Made by a program: the position numbers and the translations under genes. Positions 19,982 to 27,929 of a stretch of 64,000 nucleotides of DNA are shown in pieces. The DNA lies in the NCBI GenBank assembly GCA_965250085.1, contig OZ252287.1, positions 480,001 through 544,000 of the forward strand. The letters run 5' to 3'. Under the pieces are notes generated by a model that had not been told where the DNA came from, did not search any database, and saw only the letters and a program-made list of their open reading frames with translations. This DNA comes from Candidatus Altimarinota bacterium. Lineage in GTDB: Bacteria > Patescibacteriota > Gracilibacteria > CAIRYL01. Position 1 is the stretch's first letter. Every line of letters begins with the position of its first letter.

Positions 19982-20452
19982 CTAAACCATAGCTTTCAGG
20001 AGTTCTGTGAGAGCAAATGCAGTTGCTTTTTGTTGCACTTCTTCTCGATCGCCATCAAATTGCTCATCAAATATTTGGGTCTTATTATTTTTGCAGGAAA
20101 CAGCAAAAATAACCCTGCCGTTTTCAAAGCCCGGTTCAAATTCAGGGCCGGCACAACCAGTGGTTGCTACAGAAACATCAGCAGTGTTTCTCATACGAAT
20201 ATTCTCTGCCATCTGCTCAACAGCTTGGGCAGAATATCCTTCTGTTTTTTCAATTTCACCCGGACTCACTCCCAGTGAGTGAATTTTGGCATCTACATGA
20301 TAAGCAACAATACCACAAATAAACACTTCGGATGATCCAGGTACAGAAGTAAGTGCTGAGGCAATTCGTCCGCCAGTGACACTCTCTGCAACAGCAATTT
20401 TTATTCTTCTCTTTCGAGCTCGTTCAATAATTTTCTGAGCAGTATGATTCAT
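19982..20452 (-). CDS. cinA: CinA/PncC family NMN deamidase
   Basis: AVAESVTGG, PGSS and ATTGCAGP motifs; ATG at 20452 just after the tRNA. Confidence 0.85.
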   Translation of the reverse strand: MNHTAQKIIERARKRRIKIAVAESVTGGRIASALTSVPGSSEVFICGIVAYHVDAKIHSLGVSPGEIEKTEGYSAQAVEQMAENIRMRNTADVSVATTGCAGPEFEPGFENGRVIFAVSCKNNKTQIFDEQFDGDREEVQQKATAFALTELLKAMV

Positions 20453-20460
20453 TGGAGAAT

Positions 20461-20535
<75 letters not shown>

Positions 20536-20577
20536 TCAAAATAATAAATCATGTTATAAAGGTGCTTTTCTCTCTCG

Positions 20578-20632
20578 CGAGGTCCTGCCTCGTGAGCTAT
20601 CCGCCACGGCGGACTCGTACCCCGCGTCAAAA
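20578..20632 (-). pseudogene. Degenerate duplicate of the 5' half of tRNA-fMet with an inserted palindrome
   Basis: TACCCCGCGTCAAAA and GCCTCG.GAGCTA repeat the tRNA 5' part; TCCGCCACGGCGGA sits at the D-loop position. Confidence 0.7.
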
Positions 20633-20740
20633 GCCAGGGAAGCATATCAATCTTCCTTTGAAATTGCAAAAATATTTTATCTCATCACCTTTACTCTTTT
20701 TTGTCTAAGAGTACAATACTTTCAGTGCTTTCAAATCGTT

Positions 20741-22132
20741 ATGAAAAAAAAATATCTTTCATTTTTGGGATTTTTCATTTTGCTGAGTTCCACAGTATTT
20801 GCTGACTTTAGTGATGTGAGTGATGACAATATATATAAAGATGCTATCGACTATGTACAAGAACAAGGGATTGTAGACGGTTATGTAGATGGGACGTATA
20901 AGCCAGAAAACACAATAAATCGTGCAGAATTTACAAAAATAGTCATTGAATCTCAATTCGCGGATGAGGTGATAGAATTGTGTATAGAAACAGAGACTGA
21001 GAAGGAGTGGTCATATGTATTTTTTCCAGATGTCCCCAAGAATGAGTGGTTCGGAAAATATATTTGTATTGCAAAAGCCCAAGGGATAATTGATGGATAC
21101 CCAGATGAAACATACAGACCGGAGCAAAATATTTCATTCGTAGAAGCCGCAAAAATCATTGTGAATATTTTTGAATTTGAAACGAGTGACGATGAAATTT
21201 GGTATAAGCCATTTGTAGAAAAATTGGGAGATACAAACGCCATTCCTCTTGCAATTGATAATTTTGAACACCTTGTTTCCAGAGGAGAAATGGCAGAAAT
21301 GATATACCGCCTCAAGGAAAATATTATAGACAAAACTTCTCACACCTATGCTTCTCTCTCTCAAGAGAAAAACATTATTTTTTGTGGAGGAATTAACGAA
21401 ATCAAGTGCCCCGAAGGATTTGTATGTGAATATGAAGATGAGACAACAGGCTCTTCAGGTATATGCAGAGAAGACACCCAGCTTGATCCTTCCTGCAATT
21501 TACTTCCTGATGCAGGCCCGTGTAAGGCAGCTATTTCTAAGTACTATTTTGATATAAGTAGAGACTCATGCACAGAATTCACTTGGGGGGGGTGTGAAGG
21601 AATTATTCCTTTTGAAACATTCGAAACATGTGAACAAATATGTGTAGAGTCACCAGAGCCAGAGCCGCTTGATCCGGCAAAATGTGACTTAATTCCAGAT
21701 GCAGGAGAATGCGATGACACTATTACCAAGTACTATTTTGATGGAGAATCTTCTTGTGGAAGTTTTACCTGGAGTGGATGTAATGGCACTGTCCCTTTTG
21801 AAAGTCAGGAAGAATGTGAAAACACCTGCTTACTTCCAGAAGAGTCTGTTGTCAAAGAGTTTAATATGGTAGCAAAGAAATGGGTGTTTGAACCCAATCA
21901 AATCATTGTGCAAAAAGGTGATCAGGTGCGCCTTACAATTATCAGTGTCGATGTGTCTCATGGTTTTGCGCTTCCGGATTTCGATATCAATGTAGAATTG
22001 AAGCCGGGAGAAAATGTTGTGGTCGAATTTATTGCGGATCAGGCAGGTGACTTTACCTTCTTCTGCTCTGTGTTTTGTGGATCTGGGCACAGCCATATGT
22101 CCGGTACGCTTACGGTAGAAGAGAAGCTGTAA
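20741..22132 (+). CDS. SLH-domain surface protein with two Kunitz/BPTI domains and a CuA-type cupredoxin
   Basis: Signal peptide; FSDV..GIVDGY..INRAEF (SLH); GPCKA..YYFD..F.WGGC (Kunitz); DVSHGF..CSVFCGSGHSHM (CuA). Confidence 0.85.
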   Translation: MKKKYLSFLGFFILLSSTVFADFSDVSDDNIYKDAIDYVQEQGIVDGYVDGTYKPENTINRAEFTKIVIESQFADEVIELCIETETEKEWSYVFFPDVPKNEWFGKYICIAKAQGIIDGYPDETYRPEQNISFVEAAKIIVNIFEFETSDDEIWYKPFVEKLGDTNAIPLAIDNFEHLVSRGEMAEMIYRLKENIIDKTSHTYASLSQEKNIIFCGGINEIKCPEGFVCEYEDETTGSSGICREDTQLDPSCNLLPDAGPCKAAISKYYFDISRDSCTEFTWGGCEGIIPFETFETCEQICVESPEPEPLDPAKCDLIPDAGECDDTITKYYFDGESSCGSFTWSGCNGTVPFESQEECENTCLLPEESVVKEFNMVAKKWVFEPNQIIVQKGDQVRLTIISVDVSHGFALPDFDINVELKPGENVVVEFIADQAGDFTFFCSVFCGSGHSHMSGTLTVEEKL

Positions 22133-22226: not shown

Positions 22227-22547
22227 ATGACAGATTTTGTGTTCGTGTATATTCCCACATCAAACCCTGAAGAAGCTGATCACATTGGACATGCTCTTTT
22301 GGAAAAAAGGTTGACGGCTTGTGTTAATACTTTTCCTCATATGCATTCTCAATATCTCTGGAAAGATAGTATTCAAAAAGAAAATGAGTCCGTGCTGATT
22401 GTAAAAACAAAAAGATCTCTATTGGAGAGAGTAAAAAATGAAGTTCAAAAGATACACAGCTATGAGTGCCCTTGCATTATTTGTATTCCTATAGAAAATA
22501 TAAACACTGCGTACAAAGACTTTTTAGAAAAAAATTTGGAAACATAA
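22227..22547 (+). CDS. cutA: Divalent-cation tolerance protein CutA
   Basis: LLEKRLTACVN, YLWKD and IHSYECPCI motifs. Confidence 0.9.
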   Translation: MTDFVFVYIPTSNPEEADHIGHALLEKRLTACVNTFPHMHSQYLWKDSIQKENESVLIVKTKRSLLERVKNEVQKIHSYECPCIICIPIENINTAYKDFLEKNLET

Positions 22548-22550
22548 GAT

Positions 22551-23585
22551 ATGACAGAAAAAAAAGATGTCACTGGCACTACTCTCTATTTTTCTGGGCC
22601 AGAAAGCTTTTTGCTCAGAGAGCATGTGCAAAAATATTTTGTTGCTTCTGAAAAGAAATATGGAGAATACAATGTCCTCAAAATGAATCCTGAAGAAAAA
22701 AAATTTGGCGAAATAAAAACAGAGCTCCTTTCCGTCCCATTTTTTAACACGGGAAAAAAAATTGTCTTTCTTGACCCATTTCCTTTGCCCTCTTCTGAAA
22801 AAATGAGTGAAGTGAAGAAAGAAAAATCTGAAAAAATTATTGAGCTCCTTAAAGGCATCCCTGAGGACATTGTGATCATTTGTGTTTCAGAACATCCGGA
22901 TAAGCGAACGAAGGCCTGGAAAGATCTCATAAAAATTGCCCAAAAAGACATTTCTCGGTCTTTTGAACCTTTGAACGAAAGGACTCTTACTCAATGGGTA
23001 TTGCAGCGGGTCTCTGCTAAAGAAGGAAAAATTCTTCCTGCAGCTGCAGAATACCTCTGGCAATATGCTGGAAAAAATTTGTGGGTGCTTGATCAGGAAG
23101 TGCAAAAACTCATCAATTTTTCAGAAGGGAAGCCAATTTCTGAGCGAGATATTGAGATTGTGTGTGATGTAAATTCTGAAACTATCGAATGGGCCCTTTC
23201 AAATGCTTTTTCCACTGGTCAGAGAAAGGAGGTGCTCAAAATATTTCATCGAATGATTGATGCAGGGCAGAGCGCTTATACTCTCCTTTTTCGTGATTTT
23301 GGTTCTCTCCTCAGGCAGTTGCTCCTGGTGAGGCAGGCTCTCGATACTCGCTCTTCTGCGAAAGACATAGGGATGAGTCCTTTTCTCTTTGGAAAAATGA
23401 AAAAAGTTGCGGAGCAGTTTTCACTCTCTCATCTCAAAAATATGCAAGATGGGCTCCTAAAAATAGATGAAGGGAGCAAGACCGGCTTGATCCCCACTTC
23501 CACTGGAAAAGAAGAGCTTCTCATATTTGCCTTAGAAAAATGGATTTATAAATTCTTCAGAAAAAATTTGACAAAAACATTTTAG
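22551..23585 (+). CDS. holA: DNA polymerase III delta subunit
   Basis: YFSGPESFL, PFF..KKIV, DKRTK and LDQEVQKL motifs. Confidence 0.85.
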   Translation: MTEKKDVTGTTLYFSGPESFLLREHVQKYFVASEKKYGEYNVLKMNPEEKKFGEIKTELLSVPFFNTGKKIVFLDPFPLPSSEKMSEVKKEKSEKIIELLKGIPEDIVIICVSEHPDKRTKAWKDLIKIAQKDISRSFEPLNERTLTQWVLQRVSAKEGKILPAAAEYLWQYAGKNLWVLDQEVQKLINFSEGKPISERDIEIVCDVNSETIEWALSNAFSTGQRKEVLKIFHRMIDAGQSAYTLLFRDFGSLLRQLLLVRQALDTRSSAKDIGMSPFLFGKMKKVAEQFSLSHLKNMQDGLLKIDEGSKTGLIPTSTGKEELLIFALEKWIYKFFRKNLTKTF

Positions 23586-23595
23586 AGACTACAAT
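23568..23595 (+). promoter_or_regulatory. Sigma70-type promoter for the argGH leader
   Basis: TTGACA-N16-TACAAT. Confidence 0.65.
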
Positions 23596-23619
23596 TCAGA
23601 GTGTATTAAGAAATGAGCA

Positions 23620-23746
23620 ATGAATTACTTGAAAAACAACACGGGATGCGATCGGCGAGAAGCTTCTAAATGGAAGCTCCGTTGATGCTGCACTAAAATT
23701 TTACTTCTGCACTTCGTATAGCTTCTGATCTTTCGGAAGTTTTTTT
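23620..23746 (+). promoter_or_regulatory. Attenuator 1: leader peptide MNYLKNNTGCDRREASKWKLR* plus terminator
   Basis: ORF 23620-23685; GGAAGCT (23672-78) can pair with AGCTTC (23661-66) or AGCTTCT (23720-26); terminator GCTTCTGA-TCTT-TCGGAAGT plus U-tract. Confidence 0.65.
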
Positions 23747-23771
23747 ATTTTTATAAAAATTTTAATTTCAT

Positions 23772-23899
23772 ATGTCTCTCAATCTTGCATCACGACCGCA
23801 GTTTCGACAATTCTGGTATTTTCAGAAGTTCCGGTGACGCATCTATAAATTTTTTACATGCATTCAAAGACTTCTGAATAAATTCCAGGAGTCTTTTTT
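23772..23899 (+). promoter_or_regulatory. Attenuator 2: leader peptide MSLNLASRPQFRQFWYFQKFR* plus terminator
   Basis: ORF 23772-23837; CAGAAGT can pair with TTCTG (23811) or ACTTCTG (23870); terminator AAAGACTTCTG..CAGGAGTCTTT plus U-tract. Confidence 0.7.
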
Positions 23900-23918
23900 A
23901 TTTTTTTATTTTTTTGTC

Positions 23919-25181
23919 ATGAAATCACAAACAACATATCTCAAAATAGCTGATTATGAAGCTAAAAAAGGAGAAGTCAAAACTGTTGCGCTTCTCTACT
24001 CGGGAGGTCTTGATACCTCCATTATCGTCAAGTGGCTGCAAGACGAGTATAAGGTTGATGTATACTGCGTCACATTTGATATTGGTCAAACCGCTGATGA
24101 CCTAGAAGCAATTAAACAAAAAGCCATGAGGCTTGGAGCAAAAGATTGCATCATTGTTGATCATAAAGAAGATTTTGCTAATGGAGTTCTTACGCAAGCC
24201 ATCAAAGCAAATGCTAAGTATCAAAGTGACTATTACCTCTCTTGCCCGCTTGGTCGTGCTAGCATTTCAAAGAAAATGGCTGAAATTTCTAAAAATCTGA
24301 AAGTTGATGCCATTGCACATGGTTGTACCGGCAAGGGAAATGACCAAGCACGCTTTGAGAGTTATCTTCTTGCTTTTCTTCCAAACGTGAAGATTATTGC
24401 CCCTGTCCGCGAATGGTCCATGGGACGTGACGAGCAACTCCAATATGCAAAACAACATGGTATTGATATCGTGCAAAGTGAGACAAAAATTTACTCATAT
24501 GATGAAAATATGTGGGGGAACTGTATAGAAGGCGGTGAAACTGAAGAACTCAATCAAATCCCTCCACTTGATAATATGCTGAGAATTTGTAACACGATTG
24601 AGAACACACCCTGCACTGCGGAATTTGTAAAAATACAATTCAAAAAAGGTGTTCCCATTGCTCTTGATGGAAAAAAAATGGAGCTTTCAGAAATCATCAT
24701 GCAACTTCTCGGCATTGGTGGAAAACATGGCGTGGGGGTACATCATTGTATAGAGGATCGTCTTGTGGGACTCAAGGTACGTGAAGTATATGAGCAGCCT
24801 GCTGCCGAAATACTCGTGAAAGCTCATAAAAGCCTCGAGCAATTGGTCTGTACCCGTGAAGAAAATGAATTCAAAGAAAGTATTGATCAAAAATGGGCAT
24901 ATATGACATACCTCGCACTCTATTATCACCCACTCATGGGCCATTTGAATGCTTATATTGAGAGTGTGAATGAAAAAGTAACTGGTGATGTAACCGTCAA
25001 AATTTTGAAAGGCACATGTGAAGTGGTCTCTCTAGATTCACCACATTCGCTGTTTGATAAAAATCTTTCTACCTTTCTCAAAAACGACGCCTTTAATCAG
25101 AATTGTTCTGCCGGATTTATTTCTATTTACAGCGGGCAAATGAGACTTGCACATCAGGTACAACAAAAAAATAATACATAA
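23919..25181 (+). CDS. argG: Argininosuccinate synthase
   Basis: LYSGGLDTS, HGCTGKGNDQ and EDRLVGLK motifs. Confidence 0.96.
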   Translation: MKSQTTYLKIADYEAKKGEVKTVALLYSGGLDTSIIVKWLQDEYKVDVYCVTFDIGQTADDLEAIKQKAMRLGAKDCIIVDHKEDFANGVLTQAIKANAKYQSDYYLSCPLGRASISKKMAEISKNLKVDAIAHGCTGKGNDQARFESYLLAFLPNVKIIAPVREWSMGRDEQLQYAKQHGIDIVQSETKIYSYDENMWGNCIEGGETEELNQIPPLDNMLRICNTIENTPCTAEFVKIQFKKGVPIALDGKKMELSEIIMQLLGIGGKHGVGVHHCIEDRLVGLKVREVYEQPAAEILVKAHKSLEQLVCTREENEFKESIDQKWAYMTYLALYYHPLMGHLNAYIESVNEKVTGDVTVKILKGTCEVVSLDSPHSLFDKNLSTFLKNDAFNQNCSAGFISIYSGQMRLAHQVQQKNNT

Positions 25182-25202
25182 TCTTTCTTTTTCTTTCTTT
25201 CT

Positions 25203-26495
25203 ATGACAAAACTCTGGAAAAAACCATCTTCTGGAAAAATACATCCTTTTTTTCAGAAATACACCACCGGCACTGATAATATTTTTGATATCAAACTCTT
25301 TCCGTTCGATATTCAAGCAAGCATTGTGCATATCAAAATGCTCCAAAAAATTGGAATTCTCACAAAACCAGAGCTGAGCAAATTGTTGCAAGGATTTGAA
25401 AAATTAAAGAAGAAATACACTGATGGAAAAATAAAAATACGTTTTGAGGACGAAGATTGTCATACTGTGATCGAAAATGAAATGATCGCATTGTGCGGGG
25501 ATACTGCAAAAAAAATTCACACGGGAAGGAGTCGAAATGATCAAGTTTTGGTTGCAATACGCTTGTATACACTCTCAGAATTGCAAAAAATTCAAAAACA
25601 GTTGAAGCAGGTTCTTACCCATTTTCTGGATTTTGCCGAGCAGTATCAAAAAATTCCTTTCCCTGGATATTCACATACCCGCCAGGCGATGCTTTCGAGC
25701 ATAGATCATTACATTTTAGGGTATATCGATCTGCTTCTGAGTGATTTTGAATATCTCAATTTTGCAATATCTCAGACAAGTAAGAATCCCTTAGGAACTG
25801 GAGCAGGATACGGAAGTTCTTTTGCGCTGGATCGAGAGATGACGACAGAAGAACTGGATTTCAGCAAGACTCAAATAAACTCATTAGCCCCTCAGCTCAG
25901 TCGCGGGAAGTGTGAGCTATGTACTCTGGATGCCCTTGTTCAGCTCATAGTTACACTTGGAAAATTTTCACAAGATATCATTTTCTTCACTTCCGAAGAA
26001 ACCAGCTATTTCACTCTCAGTGATATCATCACAACTGGCTCTAGTATGATGCCGCAAAAAAGAAATCCTGATGGATTTGAAATCCTGCGTGGATATGTGA
26101 ATGTCATTATGGGCAATCAGCATACTATTCAGGGAATTTGCAAAAATTCTTTCACTGGATACAATCGTGATTTTCAATTGATAAAAAAACCACTTTTTGA
26201 ATCCTTGGATATAGTGCAGGACAGTCTAAAGTTTCTATTCATGGCATTAAAAAATATCGTTCCGAATCAGGAAAAAATTGAGGAAAAAATTGATAGAGGT
26301 ATTTTTTCAGTTGATATTGCTAACACTTTAGTTCAAAAAAAAGGTATTCCTTTTCGAGATGCATATCATCTCGCCATGAAGCAACTTGGGGAACACAAAG
26401 CAGACCTTCAGGAAAATATTGCTTCAAAGATAAGTCTGGGAGCACCTGGAAACACACAGCTTAAATGGTATAAAAATAAAATAAAAAATCTTTAG
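25203..26495 (+). CDS. argH: Argininosuccinate lyase
   Basis: HTGRSRNDQ, GSSMMPQKRNPD and GIPFRDAY motifs. Confidence 0.95.
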   Translation: MTKLWKKPSSGKIHPFFQKYTTGTDNIFDIKLFPFDIQASIVHIKMLQKIGILTKPELSKLLQGFEKLKKKYTDGKIKIRFEDEDCHTVIENEMIALCGDTAKKIHTGRSRNDQVLVAIRLYTLSELQKIQKQLKQVLTHFLDFAEQYQKIPFPGYSHTRQAMLSSIDHYILGYIDLLLSDFEYLNFAISQTSKNPLGTGAGYGSSFALDREMTTEELDFSKTQINSLAPQLSRGKCELCTLDALVQLIVTLGKFSQDIIFFTSEETSYFTLSDIITTGSSMMPQKRNPDGFEILRGYVNVIMGNQHTIQGICKNSFTGYNRDFQLIKKPLFESLDIVQDSLKFLFMALKNIVPNQEKIEEKIDRGIFSVDIANTLVQKKGIPFRDAYHLAMKQLGEHKADLQENIASKISLGAPGNTQLKWYKNKIKNL

Positions 26496-26555
26496 ATAAA
26501 AATAGTAGCGAGGCATCGAAATCTGTCTCTATCAAAAAACGAAAACAAAAAGTAT

Positions 26556-27929
26556 TTATATTTCTGTAAACAAGGCTTCCATTGTTTTGAGTCCAAAATC
26601 CCCTGCCCAGTCAGCAGAAGCATCAACTATCAATTGGTGTTTTTGCTGAAGTGCTATGACCGCTTCTCGGGTCAGTTCCCCATAAAATCCAGTGCTGAGT
26701 CCTTCTCTGAGATACCCTTTCGCGATGAGTTCCTGTTGCATCATTGCTATCTCATTCCCTTCGTCTCCGATGGTAAATTTTTCTGCCTCTACGAGTATTT
26801 CTTCAAATACTTTCTTTTTCAGAATATTTCCAAAAACAAGTTTTGGGCTGTCTTTTTTTGTTTGCCCTTCAGACGGTGCTGCATGTACCGTTTCAATTTT
26901 TTGAGAGAGTTTTTCCTGGAGCGCTGCATTTGTTTTGGGGCCAAACACTCCCGCTCCATAATCAGTAATTTCTACAACAATATCTCCTGATTTTTGGAAC
27001 TCAAAAACAGCTTCCTGAGTAATATTCCCAAAGTTTCCAGTTATTGCTTCATCAAAAAATCCAAGTTTTTTGAGATGTGTCTGCAGAGATTTGACCTCAT
27101 CTCCTGTGTCTCCCAGAGAAAGAGAAGCAAATGATGGGCTCTGTTTTTTCGGAGAAATAAATTCTGTTTGTAGTGCTTTTTCAAGTGCACTGCGTGTTTG
27201 GGGACCAAATATTCCTGCACCCCATTCTTTTTCGGAGGCAACAATGCCCATGCGTCTTTGAAATTGAAAAACTGCTTTTTTGGTAAACTGTCCAAACTCT
27301 CCTGTTTCTGTTGTATCAAAAAACCCAAGTTTCTTCAGATTTTTCTGAAGCTCGCGAACATCATCTCCTTTGCTTCCTAAGAACATGGTTCTTTGCGTAT
27401 TAGGAGCAAGCTTTTGAATATTTGTTGGATTGGCCCAAACGTCATCTATAGAGAGTTCTTCTGACACTTGAGTATCATAATATATGGTTCCTTCCACTGT
27501 ACGCATTCCCCATTGCAATGCTCGTGCGAGTCCTTCTTCTCCTCTTCCCATCCAGACATCAATGCGATGATAATTGGCTCCCTCTATAATAGCTCCGCCC
27601 CTGTCATGCACGGTTCCAATACCAAGTCCAGGGACCTCTATCTTGGTTCCAAACGGATAACTCTTTGGAGCCGCCAGCATCCCTACATATACAGCAGTCC
27701 CGTCTGCTCCATTGGTTCCTCGTCCATTCAGACGAATCTCTGCTTCATAATTCCCACGCAAATATCGGGATTGCCCGGGTAATGGAGAGTAATACGCGGA
27801 AACAAGAAATGTTTGCTTTCTCCCAGCCGCATGTGCTGTGTGAGAAGCAGTCGGAAACAATACGCCAAAACTCAACACTGTGACGCAGAGGAAGGCAAAA
27901 AGTTTTTGAATTTTTATAAATTGAAACAT
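26556..27929 (-). CDS. 3D-domain protein with multiple peptidoglycan-binding domains
   Basis: SAYYSP, AAPKSYPFGT..DRGGAI..IDVWMG; three G.FG..T..AV..FQ-type repeats. Confidence 0.85.
   Translation of the reverse strand: MFQFIKIQKLFAFLCVTVLSFGVLFPTASHTAHAAGRKQTFLVSAYYSPLPGQSRYLRGNYEAEIRLNGRGTNGADGTAVYVGMLAAPKSYPFGTKIEVPGLGIGTVHDRGGAIIEGANYHRIDVWMGRGEEGLARALQWGMRTVEGTIYYDTQVSEELSIDDVWANPTNIQKLAPNTQRTMFLGSKGDDVRELQKNLKKLGFFDTTETGEFGQFTKKAVFQFQRRMGIVASEKEWGAGIFGPQTRSALEKALQTEFISPKKQSPSFASLSLGDTGDEVKSLQTHLKKLGFFDEAITGNFGNITQEAVFEFQKSGDIVVEITDYGAGVFGPKTNAALQEKLSQKIETVHAAPSEGQTKKDSPKLVFGNILKKKVFEEILVEAEKFTIGDEGNEIAMMQQELIAKGYLREGLSTGFYGELTREAVIALQQKHQLIVDASADWAGDFGLKTMEALFTEI

Follow-up and report, generated by a model that had tools for sequence, protein, structure and literature searches.

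Leader-peptide attenuation of transcription is known for the trp, his, leu, thr, phe(A) and ilv operons of enterobacteria, with Rfam families Trp_leader, His_leader, Leu_leader, Thr_leader and Phe_leader among its representatives, and arginine genes are the textbook case of repression by ArgR/AhrC, ArgR being a DNA-binding protein that senses free arginine. In the fungal arginine attenuator peptide (arg-2/CPA1), a nascent chain senses free arginine and acts on translation. Mycobacterial polycysteine leaderless short open reading frames (sORFs) are attenuators in which a run of codons senses a non-classical amino acid, cysteine, and in tandem T-boxes and riboswitches, which bind tRNA or metabolites directly, serial terminator gates multiply repression. 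To our knowledge, next to nothing is known of how genes are regulated in Patescibacteria (Candidate Phyla Radiation, CPR), a large and mostly uncultured group. Two bacterial leaders that respond to arginine have been described. The available portion of the report on Salmonella speF presents leader orf34 as an ORF of 34 codons with two consecutive Arg codons, in which ribosome speed reports arginine and picks the mRNA fold (PMC6386406); that on Staphylococcus aureus rbfL presents a short leader peptide with rare Arg codons at which the ribosome pauses under arginine limitation (PMC13009471). Here we analyse a window of 64,000 nucleotides (nt) from a Candidatus Altimarinota bacterium (assembly GCA_965250085.1, contig OZ252287.1, positions 480,001 to 544,000) and propose, with a probability of roughly 80%, that an arginine-specific, ribosome-mediated leader-peptide transcription attenuator occurs twice in series between one promoter and the argGH genes.

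The proposed attenuators occupy a leader of 333 nt between the end of a holA-like gene and argG. The features of the locus, in window coordinates, are as follows.

22551-23585, forward strand: holA-like gene, its 3' end overlapped by the promoter
23568-23595, forward strand: sigma-70-type promoter, TTGACA (23568-73), 16-nt spacer, TACAAT (23590-95); consensus match 11/12
23613-23669, forward strand: overlapping frame of 18 codons from an upstream ATG, MSNELLEKQHGMRSARSF and stop
23620-23685, forward strand: leader ORF 1, 21 codons, MNYLKNNTGCDRREASKWKLR and stop; TGA at 23683-85
23651-23686, forward strand: hairpin 1:2 of unit 1, −16.8 kcal/mol; strand 1 at 23651-23667, strand 2 at 23672-23686
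23672-23726, forward strand: antiterminator 2:3 of unit 1, −12.1 kcal/mol
23720-23748, forward strand: terminator 3:4 of unit 1, stem 23720-28/23733-41 of 9 pairs, loop of 4 nt, T run, −10.0 kcal/mol
23772-23837, forward strand: leader ORF 2, 21 codons, MSLNLASRPQFRQFWYFQKFR and stop; TGA at 23835-37
23811-23827, forward strand: weak hairpin 1:2 of unit 2, UUCUGG (23811-16) with UCAGAA (23822-27), −6.3 kcal/mol (region 23800-23836)
23821-23878, forward strand: antiterminator 2:3 of unit 2, UUCAGAAGUU (23821-30) with AGACUUCUGAA (about 23868-78), −15.2 kcal/mol
23866-23905, forward strand: terminator 3:4 of unit 2, stem 23866-76/23886-96 of 11 pairs, loop of 9 nt, −12.8 kcal/mol
23919-25181, forward strand: argG, argininosuccinate synthase, 420 amino acids; NF001770, 461 bits against a cut-off of 334
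25203-26495, forward strand: argH, argininosuccinate lyase, 430 amino acids; TIGR00838, 321.7 bits against a cut-off of 279.5

An initial annotation of this DNA had claimed a TTGACA/TACAAT promoter followed by two 21-codon ORFs ending K-[L/F]-R-TGA, each with a GAAG strand able to pair either upstream or with the 5' strand of a U-tailed terminator. All of these elements were recovered: the promoter at 23568-23595 with its 11/12 match, the ORFs at 23620-23685 and 23772-23837, the alternative pairings in both units, and the terminators at 23720-23741 and 23866-23896. The promoter is the top-scoring of 18 promoter-like sites in 22400-26700 (shuffle mean, 10.2 sites), and its position would place the transcription start at about 23601-23603. 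Since only 22 nt separate terminator 2 from the ATG of argG, a gap into which no promoter fits, argGH would be expressed only via read-through of both terminators. The identities of argG and argH are given by scores that both exceed NCBIfam equivalog cut-offs. The leader as a whole has a folding z of −3.9, with an equally good fold in 0/100 shuffles, and the two units align with a mean column identity of 74%, which points to a tandem duplication. Terminator 2, which a simple hairpin scan skips owing to its 9-nt loop, was identified by folding; its T-rich tail is long and reaches up to the argG start.

In unit 1, strand 1 takes in both regulatory codons, Arg12 (CGG, 23653-55) and Arg13 (CGA, 23656-58), and strand 2 takes in the stop codon. 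The segment GGAAGCU (23672-78) has two possible partners, GCUUCU (23662-67) in hairpin 1:2 and AGCUUCU (23720-26) in the antiterminator 2:3. ORF 2 carries Arg8 (CGA, 23793-95), Arg12 (CGA, 23805-07) and Arg21 (CGG, 23832-34), and its segment UCAGAAGUU (23822-30) can pair with UUCUGG (23811-16) or with GACUUCUGA (23869-77); the antiterminator duplex of this unit (−12.8 kcal/mol) was matched by none of 300 shuffles. The antiterminator strand begins 18 nt (unit 1) or 17 nt (unit 2) from the Arg codon, and 3-5 nt lie between its end and the stop, so that the Arg and stop codons are spaced as the trp/his-type model invoked by the initial annotation needs. Each unit thus combines an Arg-codon ORF, an intrinsic terminator, a competing antiterminator and the codon and stop placement that together characterize leader-peptide attenuators.

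The effect of ribosome position on these structures was analysed in silico by folding with masked segments. For the nascent unit 1 transcript ending at 23731, a ribosome with Arg13 in its A site, which masks 23641-23670, makes 2:3 the minimum-energy fold; the ribosome-free transcript forms 1:2, and strand 3 stays unpaired once a ribosome sits at the stop codon. In unit 2, the antiterminator folds with a ribosome at Arg12 and likewise in ribosome-free RNA, while a ribosome at the stop codon, masking 23820-23849, frees the terminator. Unit 2 would therefore terminate only once a ribosome has reached its stop codon. The earlier claim that a stalled ribosome frees the antiterminator accordingly holds in masked folding of the nascent transcripts of both units.

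The units have homologues in related genomes. In the closest relative genome (G004), argG is 74% identical and argF stands directly before it; a metagenome scan for nearer argG relatives found none above 60% identity. Upstream of argF in G004 are a promoter-like site and two tandem units, with leaders MKNYCTTVRQNRRQNWSFQKVR and MNISHLSTLRRLIRRYWKLQELRRC, and ORF 1 of the window is homologous to the G004 leaders MKNYCTTVRQNRRQNWSFQKVR and MEKHRITARQNRRQNWIFQKVR. A covariance model (R1) built from four units, the two of the window and the two upstream of argF in G004, matched only the window units in the host genome (127.7 bits for unit 2, the top score, and 95.8 bits), with the next match at 26.9 bits. 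Three weak matches there (E 0.015-0.88) were rejected, as they lie inside coding sequence or are ordinary terminators. Among 20 genomes of the order the model found matches in three, namely the host genome (G000, two units), G004 (four) and G002 (one), and among 151 genomes of the class it found matches in 13. The weak class-level matches numbered 11, at 30-38 bits, and 10 of them were inspected, L202 overlapping L193 on the opposite strand. Two (L195 and L198) were accepted as units before argG in G066 and G076, which belong to another family of the class and share the leader MIKLTSTTSVVRRSRLRQKLR; L192 was held as a plausible unit; and L193, L194, L196, L197, L199, L200 and L201 were rejected, since they resemble gene-end or tRNA-end terminators.

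Each accepted unit precedes an arginine-related gene. The two further units of G004 stand before a LysE-type translocator and before an ADI/DDAH-like amidinotransferase with a PALP enzyme, and the unit of G002, with leader MNIFTSLRRNARRTCHVQGAFLKK, precedes an ornithine carbamoyltransferase (OTC)-like gene, so named from OTCase-like motifs in its translation alone, without a family-library score. The relatives' leaders retain consecutive Arg codons (RR), as one RR or as two to three RR pairs, at codons 9-15 (RQNRRQ, VRRQIRRF, LRRLIRRY, LRRNARRT); unit 2 of the window is the exception among accepted units. In G004 the cluster (L180, G004:C11:6800-12000, minus strand, about 4333-129) runs unit, LysE-type translocator, unit, amidinotransferase and PALP enzyme (threonine-synthase-like), two units, argF, argG. 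This arrangement suggests an arginine regulon that includes a transporter and an uncharacterised route, possibly to citrulline or ornithine. Units A and C of G004 have a −10-like TAGAGT 7 nt before the leader ATG (L180, about 4370-4325 and 1400-1365, minus strand), where the corresponding distance in the window is 17-24 nt, and their leaders may be translated from leaderless transcripts. A separate observation concerns genus g4, in which L003, L005 and L012 have a conserved short ORF, MITF[R/K]FYYQKR (MIPLEFYYKKRE in L012), between argF and argG; no terminator was detected after this spacer ORF, and its K-R-stop tail recalls the window leaders.

Covariation was counted on seven aligned units. 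In the form combining 1:2 and the terminator, 92.4% of cells are paired and eight pairs are changed on both sides, a result reached by 0/500 shuffles; the terminator helix is kept in all seven units, with both sides changed in 6/12 pairs. For the antiterminator, 87.3% of cells are paired, against 30-60% when the strand is slid, and three pairs are changed on both sides. The best duplex between an upstream strand and the terminator 5' strand beats 300/300 shuffles in five of the seven units; in G004 unit B, 25/300 shuffles were as good. A concerted change is seen in G002, where terminator CCCUGC and antiterminator GCAGGG replace the CUUCUG and CAGAAG of the others. An AU-rich spacer separates strands 2 and 3, and neither its length nor its sequence is constant across the seven units.

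Arg-rich leaders extend well beyond this family. From genome and metagenome loci we collected the 330 nt that precede argG, and we removed identical regions, those shorter than 250 nt and those containing N, which left 140 of 161 loci. An ORF of 6-45 codons with an ATG start and RR was found within these 330 nt in 64/140 loci, against 12/140 on the reverse complement; for RRR the counts were 31/140 and 1/140. Of the first 88 loci, 45 had tandem Arg; tandem Leu, the runner-up, was present in 22. Among named records, an RR ORF precedes argG in 34/46 CPR-labelled loci (22 of the 34 with RRR) and in 1/24 non-CPR loci (Francisella, Campylobacterota, Calditrichia, archaea and others). Read from sequence, these counts indicate that an arginine version of attenuation is common in Patescibacteria/CPR. 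Examples of such leaders are MNFVYLVSQLRRRP, MIIYNYINTNLRRRLWA and MTYFVCTKNRRRSTRI; the Arg runs are mostly CGC (61) and CGT (54). A terminator lies downstream of the RR ORF in 53/140 loci, and L007 and L038/L042 have two RR ORFs before argG.

The geometry of these leaders was analysed in 48 pairs of ORF and terminator, taken from 45 loci after eight had been dropped because the Arg run lies less than 10 nt from the hairpin. The best complement of the terminator 5' strand has a median z of −2.39, with z < −1.64 in 33/48 pairs. Its start lies at a median of 20 nt past the first Arg codon (15-25 nt in 32/48), and relative to the stop codon it extends, in the median, from −7.5 to +2 nt; in 31/48 pairs the first codon of the Arg run is codon 10 or 11. 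This is the placement expected, given the size of the ribosome footprint, if an Arg-stalled ribosome would just miss the antiterminator strand and a ribosome at the stop codon would cover it. The window units share this spacing. Thus, Arg leaders are retained in relatives and enriched upstream of argG, and their pairings are kept by compensatory changes, as the initial annotation's reading implied; judged by these comparisons, the leader type is not peculiar to the window, which holds one elaborated case of a widespread Patescibacteria leader.

We propose the following mechanism for argGH control. Transcription would begin near 23602, and in each unit a ribosome would translate the 21-codon leader while the polymerase nears an intrinsic terminator. 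With ample charged tRNA-Arg, the ribosome would reach the TGA and cover strand 2, leaving strand 3 free to form 3:4, and transcription would stop short of argG. Under a shortage of charged tRNA-Arg, the ribosome would stall at Arg12/13 in unit 1, and at Arg12 or Arg8 in unit 2, covering strand 1; strand 2, some 17-18 nt downstream, could then pair with the terminator 5' strand, permitting read-through. The ribosome-free defaults would differ, unit 1 being off (1:2 plus terminator) and unit 2 on (antiterminator). Because both gates must be passed, overall read-through would be the product of the two, and the arrangement in series might give low basal expression and a steeper response.

Several observations weigh against this mechanism. 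When unit 1 RNA is folded at full length, its minimum-energy structure is the terminator even if a ribosome is stalled on it; the antiterminator wins only before strand 4 exists, so the switch must be kinetic. A kinetic choice of fold is typical of classical attenuators. The best duplex of window unit 1 is unremarkable (30/300 shuffles as good), and unit 1 has only two Arg codons where many relatives have three or four. The frame from ATG 23613 may compete with ORF 1 for ribosomes, although we judge it secondary since the counterpart ATG is missing in the G004 units. The double-gated Arg-tRNA sensor of the initial annotation agrees with the in silico tests, but its second gate has isolated Arg codons only: in ORF 2, CGA-CCG and CGA-CAA align to the CGA-CGA pairs of G004 units B and D, indicating that the tandem pairs were lost, and unit 2 may be a blunted or altered sensor or a decaying copy. 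A unit before a LysE-type translocator is odd for a starvation-induced gene if that protein exports arginine. No RR ORF was found in 76/140 argG loci, including 12/46 of the CPR-labelled ones. On the side of method, the alignment used for covariation (A3) was fitted to the model's structure, which favours the terminated-form result, and the geometry controls are mononucleotide shuffles; related genomes, moreover, are not independent of one another. Finally, no Shine-Dalgarno sequence was found before the leader ORFs or argG. That is normal for this genome, in which Shine-Dalgarno enrichment is absent overall (GGAG upstream of ORF starts in 30/1039 windows, against 87/1039 in the coding control).

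Other explanations of the leader have to be weighed against these data. The leader peptides might act as arrest peptides sensing free arginine, with a tail W-x-[FL]-(Q)-K-[LFV]-R-stop that holds the ribosome at the stop codon, so that strand 2 stays covered and termination is favoured, either alone or on top of codon sensing. Six leaders do have similar tails, with an Arg codon directly before the stop in all six: SKWKLR and FQKFR in the window, FQKVR in two G004 units, and RQKLR in G066 and G076. However, the underlying CAGAAG, followed by NUCCG, is strand 2 and the base of hairpin 1:2, and RNA pairing already explains its conservation. Moreover, the G002 tail differs (VQGAFLKK-stop) while its strand 2 and terminator changed together, G004 units B and D run two codons longer, to RRC-stop, and the tails of the wider CPR set are unrelated (for example RRRP, RRRLWA and RRRSTRI before the stop). 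We regard arrest peptides as very improbable. A broader proposal is unlikely too, if somewhat less so: the Arg codons would report charged tRNA-Arg and a W-x-F/L-Q-K-x-R-stop tail would arrest the ribosome at high free arginine, so that a default-off and a default-on gate would compute 'translation is running AND arginine is scarce', and Patescibacteria would use such leaders instead of ArgR for a small multi-operon regulon (argF, argG, argH, amidinotransferase, LysE-type transporter).

A trans-acting switch, in which an RNA-binding protein, an uncharged tRNA as in T-boxes, or a metabolite aptamer makes the decision and the short ORFs are incidental, would fit the tandem of two structured units ending in terminators, which recalls riboswitch and T-box tandems; translation and expression of the leader ORFs are, besides, predictions from the sequence. 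Yet no T-box or riboswitch matched at E ≤ 10, the AU-rich, variable spacer between strands 2 and 3 has no aptamer-like core, and very divergent CPR loci keep an open frame whose Arg run has a constant spacing to the antiterminator strand and to the stop codon, which a translation-independent switch does not predict. This explanation has, in our estimate, an even slighter chance than arrest peptides. The terminators might instead be ordinary or leaky ones, for example of the holA-like gene, or relics of duplication, with argGH constitutive or set elsewhere; in a milder form, only unit 1 would work and unit 2 would be a decayed, fixed partial terminator. Both RR pairs kept by the homologues are lost in unit 2, whose ribosome-free fold is already the antiterminator, as this would have it. 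Against it, the promoter lies upstream of both terminators and none fits before argG; the double arrangement recurs before argF-argG in G004, and two RR ORFs occur in L007 and L038/L042; and unit 2, at 127.7 bits, retains the ORF2 frame, the position of its stop and each of the four strands. We hold it to be as improbable as arrest peptides. Attenuation by arginine-sensing leader peptides remains the reading that we prefer.

The search for other regulators is in keeping with this reading in what it covered. The arginine-binding C-terminal domain of ArgR (PF02863) was found neither in the host genome nor in any of 41 related genomes of the class, 17 of them with argG; the same search was positive in 8/14 control genomes. 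As to operator control by ArgR, PF02863 was thus not found, and no search was made for ARG-box operators. The lone PF01316 match was rejected as ArgR, being the N-terminal winged helix of a Fic-domain protein of 351 amino acids; this protein (L099:625-1680, minus strand, or G000:C1 about 1193013-1194068) combines PF01316 (27.2 bits) with a Fic/DOC domain. At the gathering threshold, Rfam gave only four tRNAs in the window and only tRNAs in 20 related loci, so that, on the point the initial annotation had left to Rfam, no family at threshold accounts for the region. At E ≤ 10, 13 sub-threshold matches fell in 23450-24000, none of them a T-box or riboswitch. The top one, to the trpB motif (26.9 bits against a gathering score of 59), was judged a generic hairpin plus terminator; Phe_leader (RF01859) reached 17.7 bits against 55, and His_leader (RF00514) 17.0 bits against 49, on the wrong strand.

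The pathway context bears on what the leader would control. The sole carbamoyltransferase in the genome is pyrB (NF002032, 324.5 bits; G000:C1:984788-985657), and no OTC was found in the host genome. The argF, PALP and LysE proteins of G004 have no convincing homologue there, and the G004 amidinotransferase has only a weak match. Of the pathway, argG and argH appear to be all that the genome retains, the argA-E and argJ steps not having been searched. As only pyrB and no OTC was found, the element probably controls citrulline-to-arginine salvage, and imported citrulline is probably the only starting material from which the organism makes arginine.

The host genome is a single contig of 1.37 Mb with 40% G+C, and its closest argG relatives among named records are labelled Peregrinibacteria, Peribacteria, Gracilibacteria, Saccharibacteria and other Patescibacteria. 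The sequencing runs listed as containing this DNA are four of DNA type, from one study, and none of RNA. Genetic code 25 (TGA = Gly), used by some relatives, was rejected for it, since TGA ends 214/1039 long ORFs and table-11 ORFs of at least 150 amino acids span 1.18 of 1.37 Mb. Start codons, including those of argG and leader ORF 2, come after U-rich tracts, and the U-rich terminator tails may also serve as initiation regions. The tRNA-Arg genes have anticodons UCU, UCG, CCU and GCG. The leaders' five Arg codons (23653-23658, 23793-95, 23805-07 and 23832-34) are all CGA or CGG, the latter the rarest Arg codon genome-wide (3.4 per 1000), and the CGA and CGG codons of both leaders are expected to be decoded by the single tRNA-Arg(UCG) gene. 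Elsewhere in the window, an ORF of 562 amino acids (20444-22132, forward strand) unites SLH, Kunitz/BPTI and cupredoxin/COX2-like domains, an unusual mix; its called start overlaps a tRNA-Met gene (20461-20535, reverse strand), so the real start probably lies downstream of the called one.

If the proposal is correct, the leaders would outline a first candidate amino-acid regulon for these organisms, comprising argF/G/H and, in the closest relative, an amidinotransferase-like enzyme and a LysE-type transporter. They would also offer a natural case of two translation-dependent serial gates with different defaults, which bears on regulation in small genomes without transcription factors and on RNA circuit design. 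Should only argG and argH be kept, what the switch controls would be the conversion of salvaged citrulline to arginine, a step that bears on the host dependence of episymbionts. In line with the initial annotation's remark that such an element was not known to be described, our literature search turned up no case in which arg genes are controlled by an arginine leader-peptide transcription attenuator; supplementary lists of predicted upstream ORF or leader motifs, such as that accompanying PMC8632094, of which part was available, could bear on this novelty.

Among described systems, the speF leader, in the available portion of its report, is alike in that consecutive Arg codons of an upstream ORF choose between alternative folds, and unlike in being a single unit whose output is RNase G sensitivity, Rho termination and exposure of the ribosome-binding site of an ornithine decarboxylase gene (PMC6386406); in the window the output would be an intrinsic terminator ahead of genes for arginine biosynthesis. 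The rbfL leader, as far as the accessible text of its report goes, occludes the rbf ribosome-binding site, so that starvation represses translation, instead of choosing between terminator and antiterminator, and its target is a biofilm regulator (PMC13009471). ArgR/AhrC serves the same goal, arg genes off at ample arginine, whereas the signal at the window's leader would be charged tRNA-Arg. The fungal arginine attenuator peptide and the mycobacterial sORFs, the latter in a different phylum, resemble it as short upstream ORFs that control amino-acid biosynthesis genes. Unlike the gates of tandem T-boxes or riboswitches, each gate in the window would need its own round of leader translation. 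The closest likeness is to the classical attenuators, with which the locus shares a promoter, a short ORF with codons for the end product, mutually exclusive 1:2, 2:3 and 3:4 pairings, an intrinsic terminator before the first gene, and a stop codon at which a ribosome that has completed the leader would block strand 2. It differs from them in that it would sense arginine, matches no Rfam leader and belongs to a Patescibacteria host without Shine-Dalgarno usage, and in having two apparently complete attenuators in series, the second of them predicted to be on by default.

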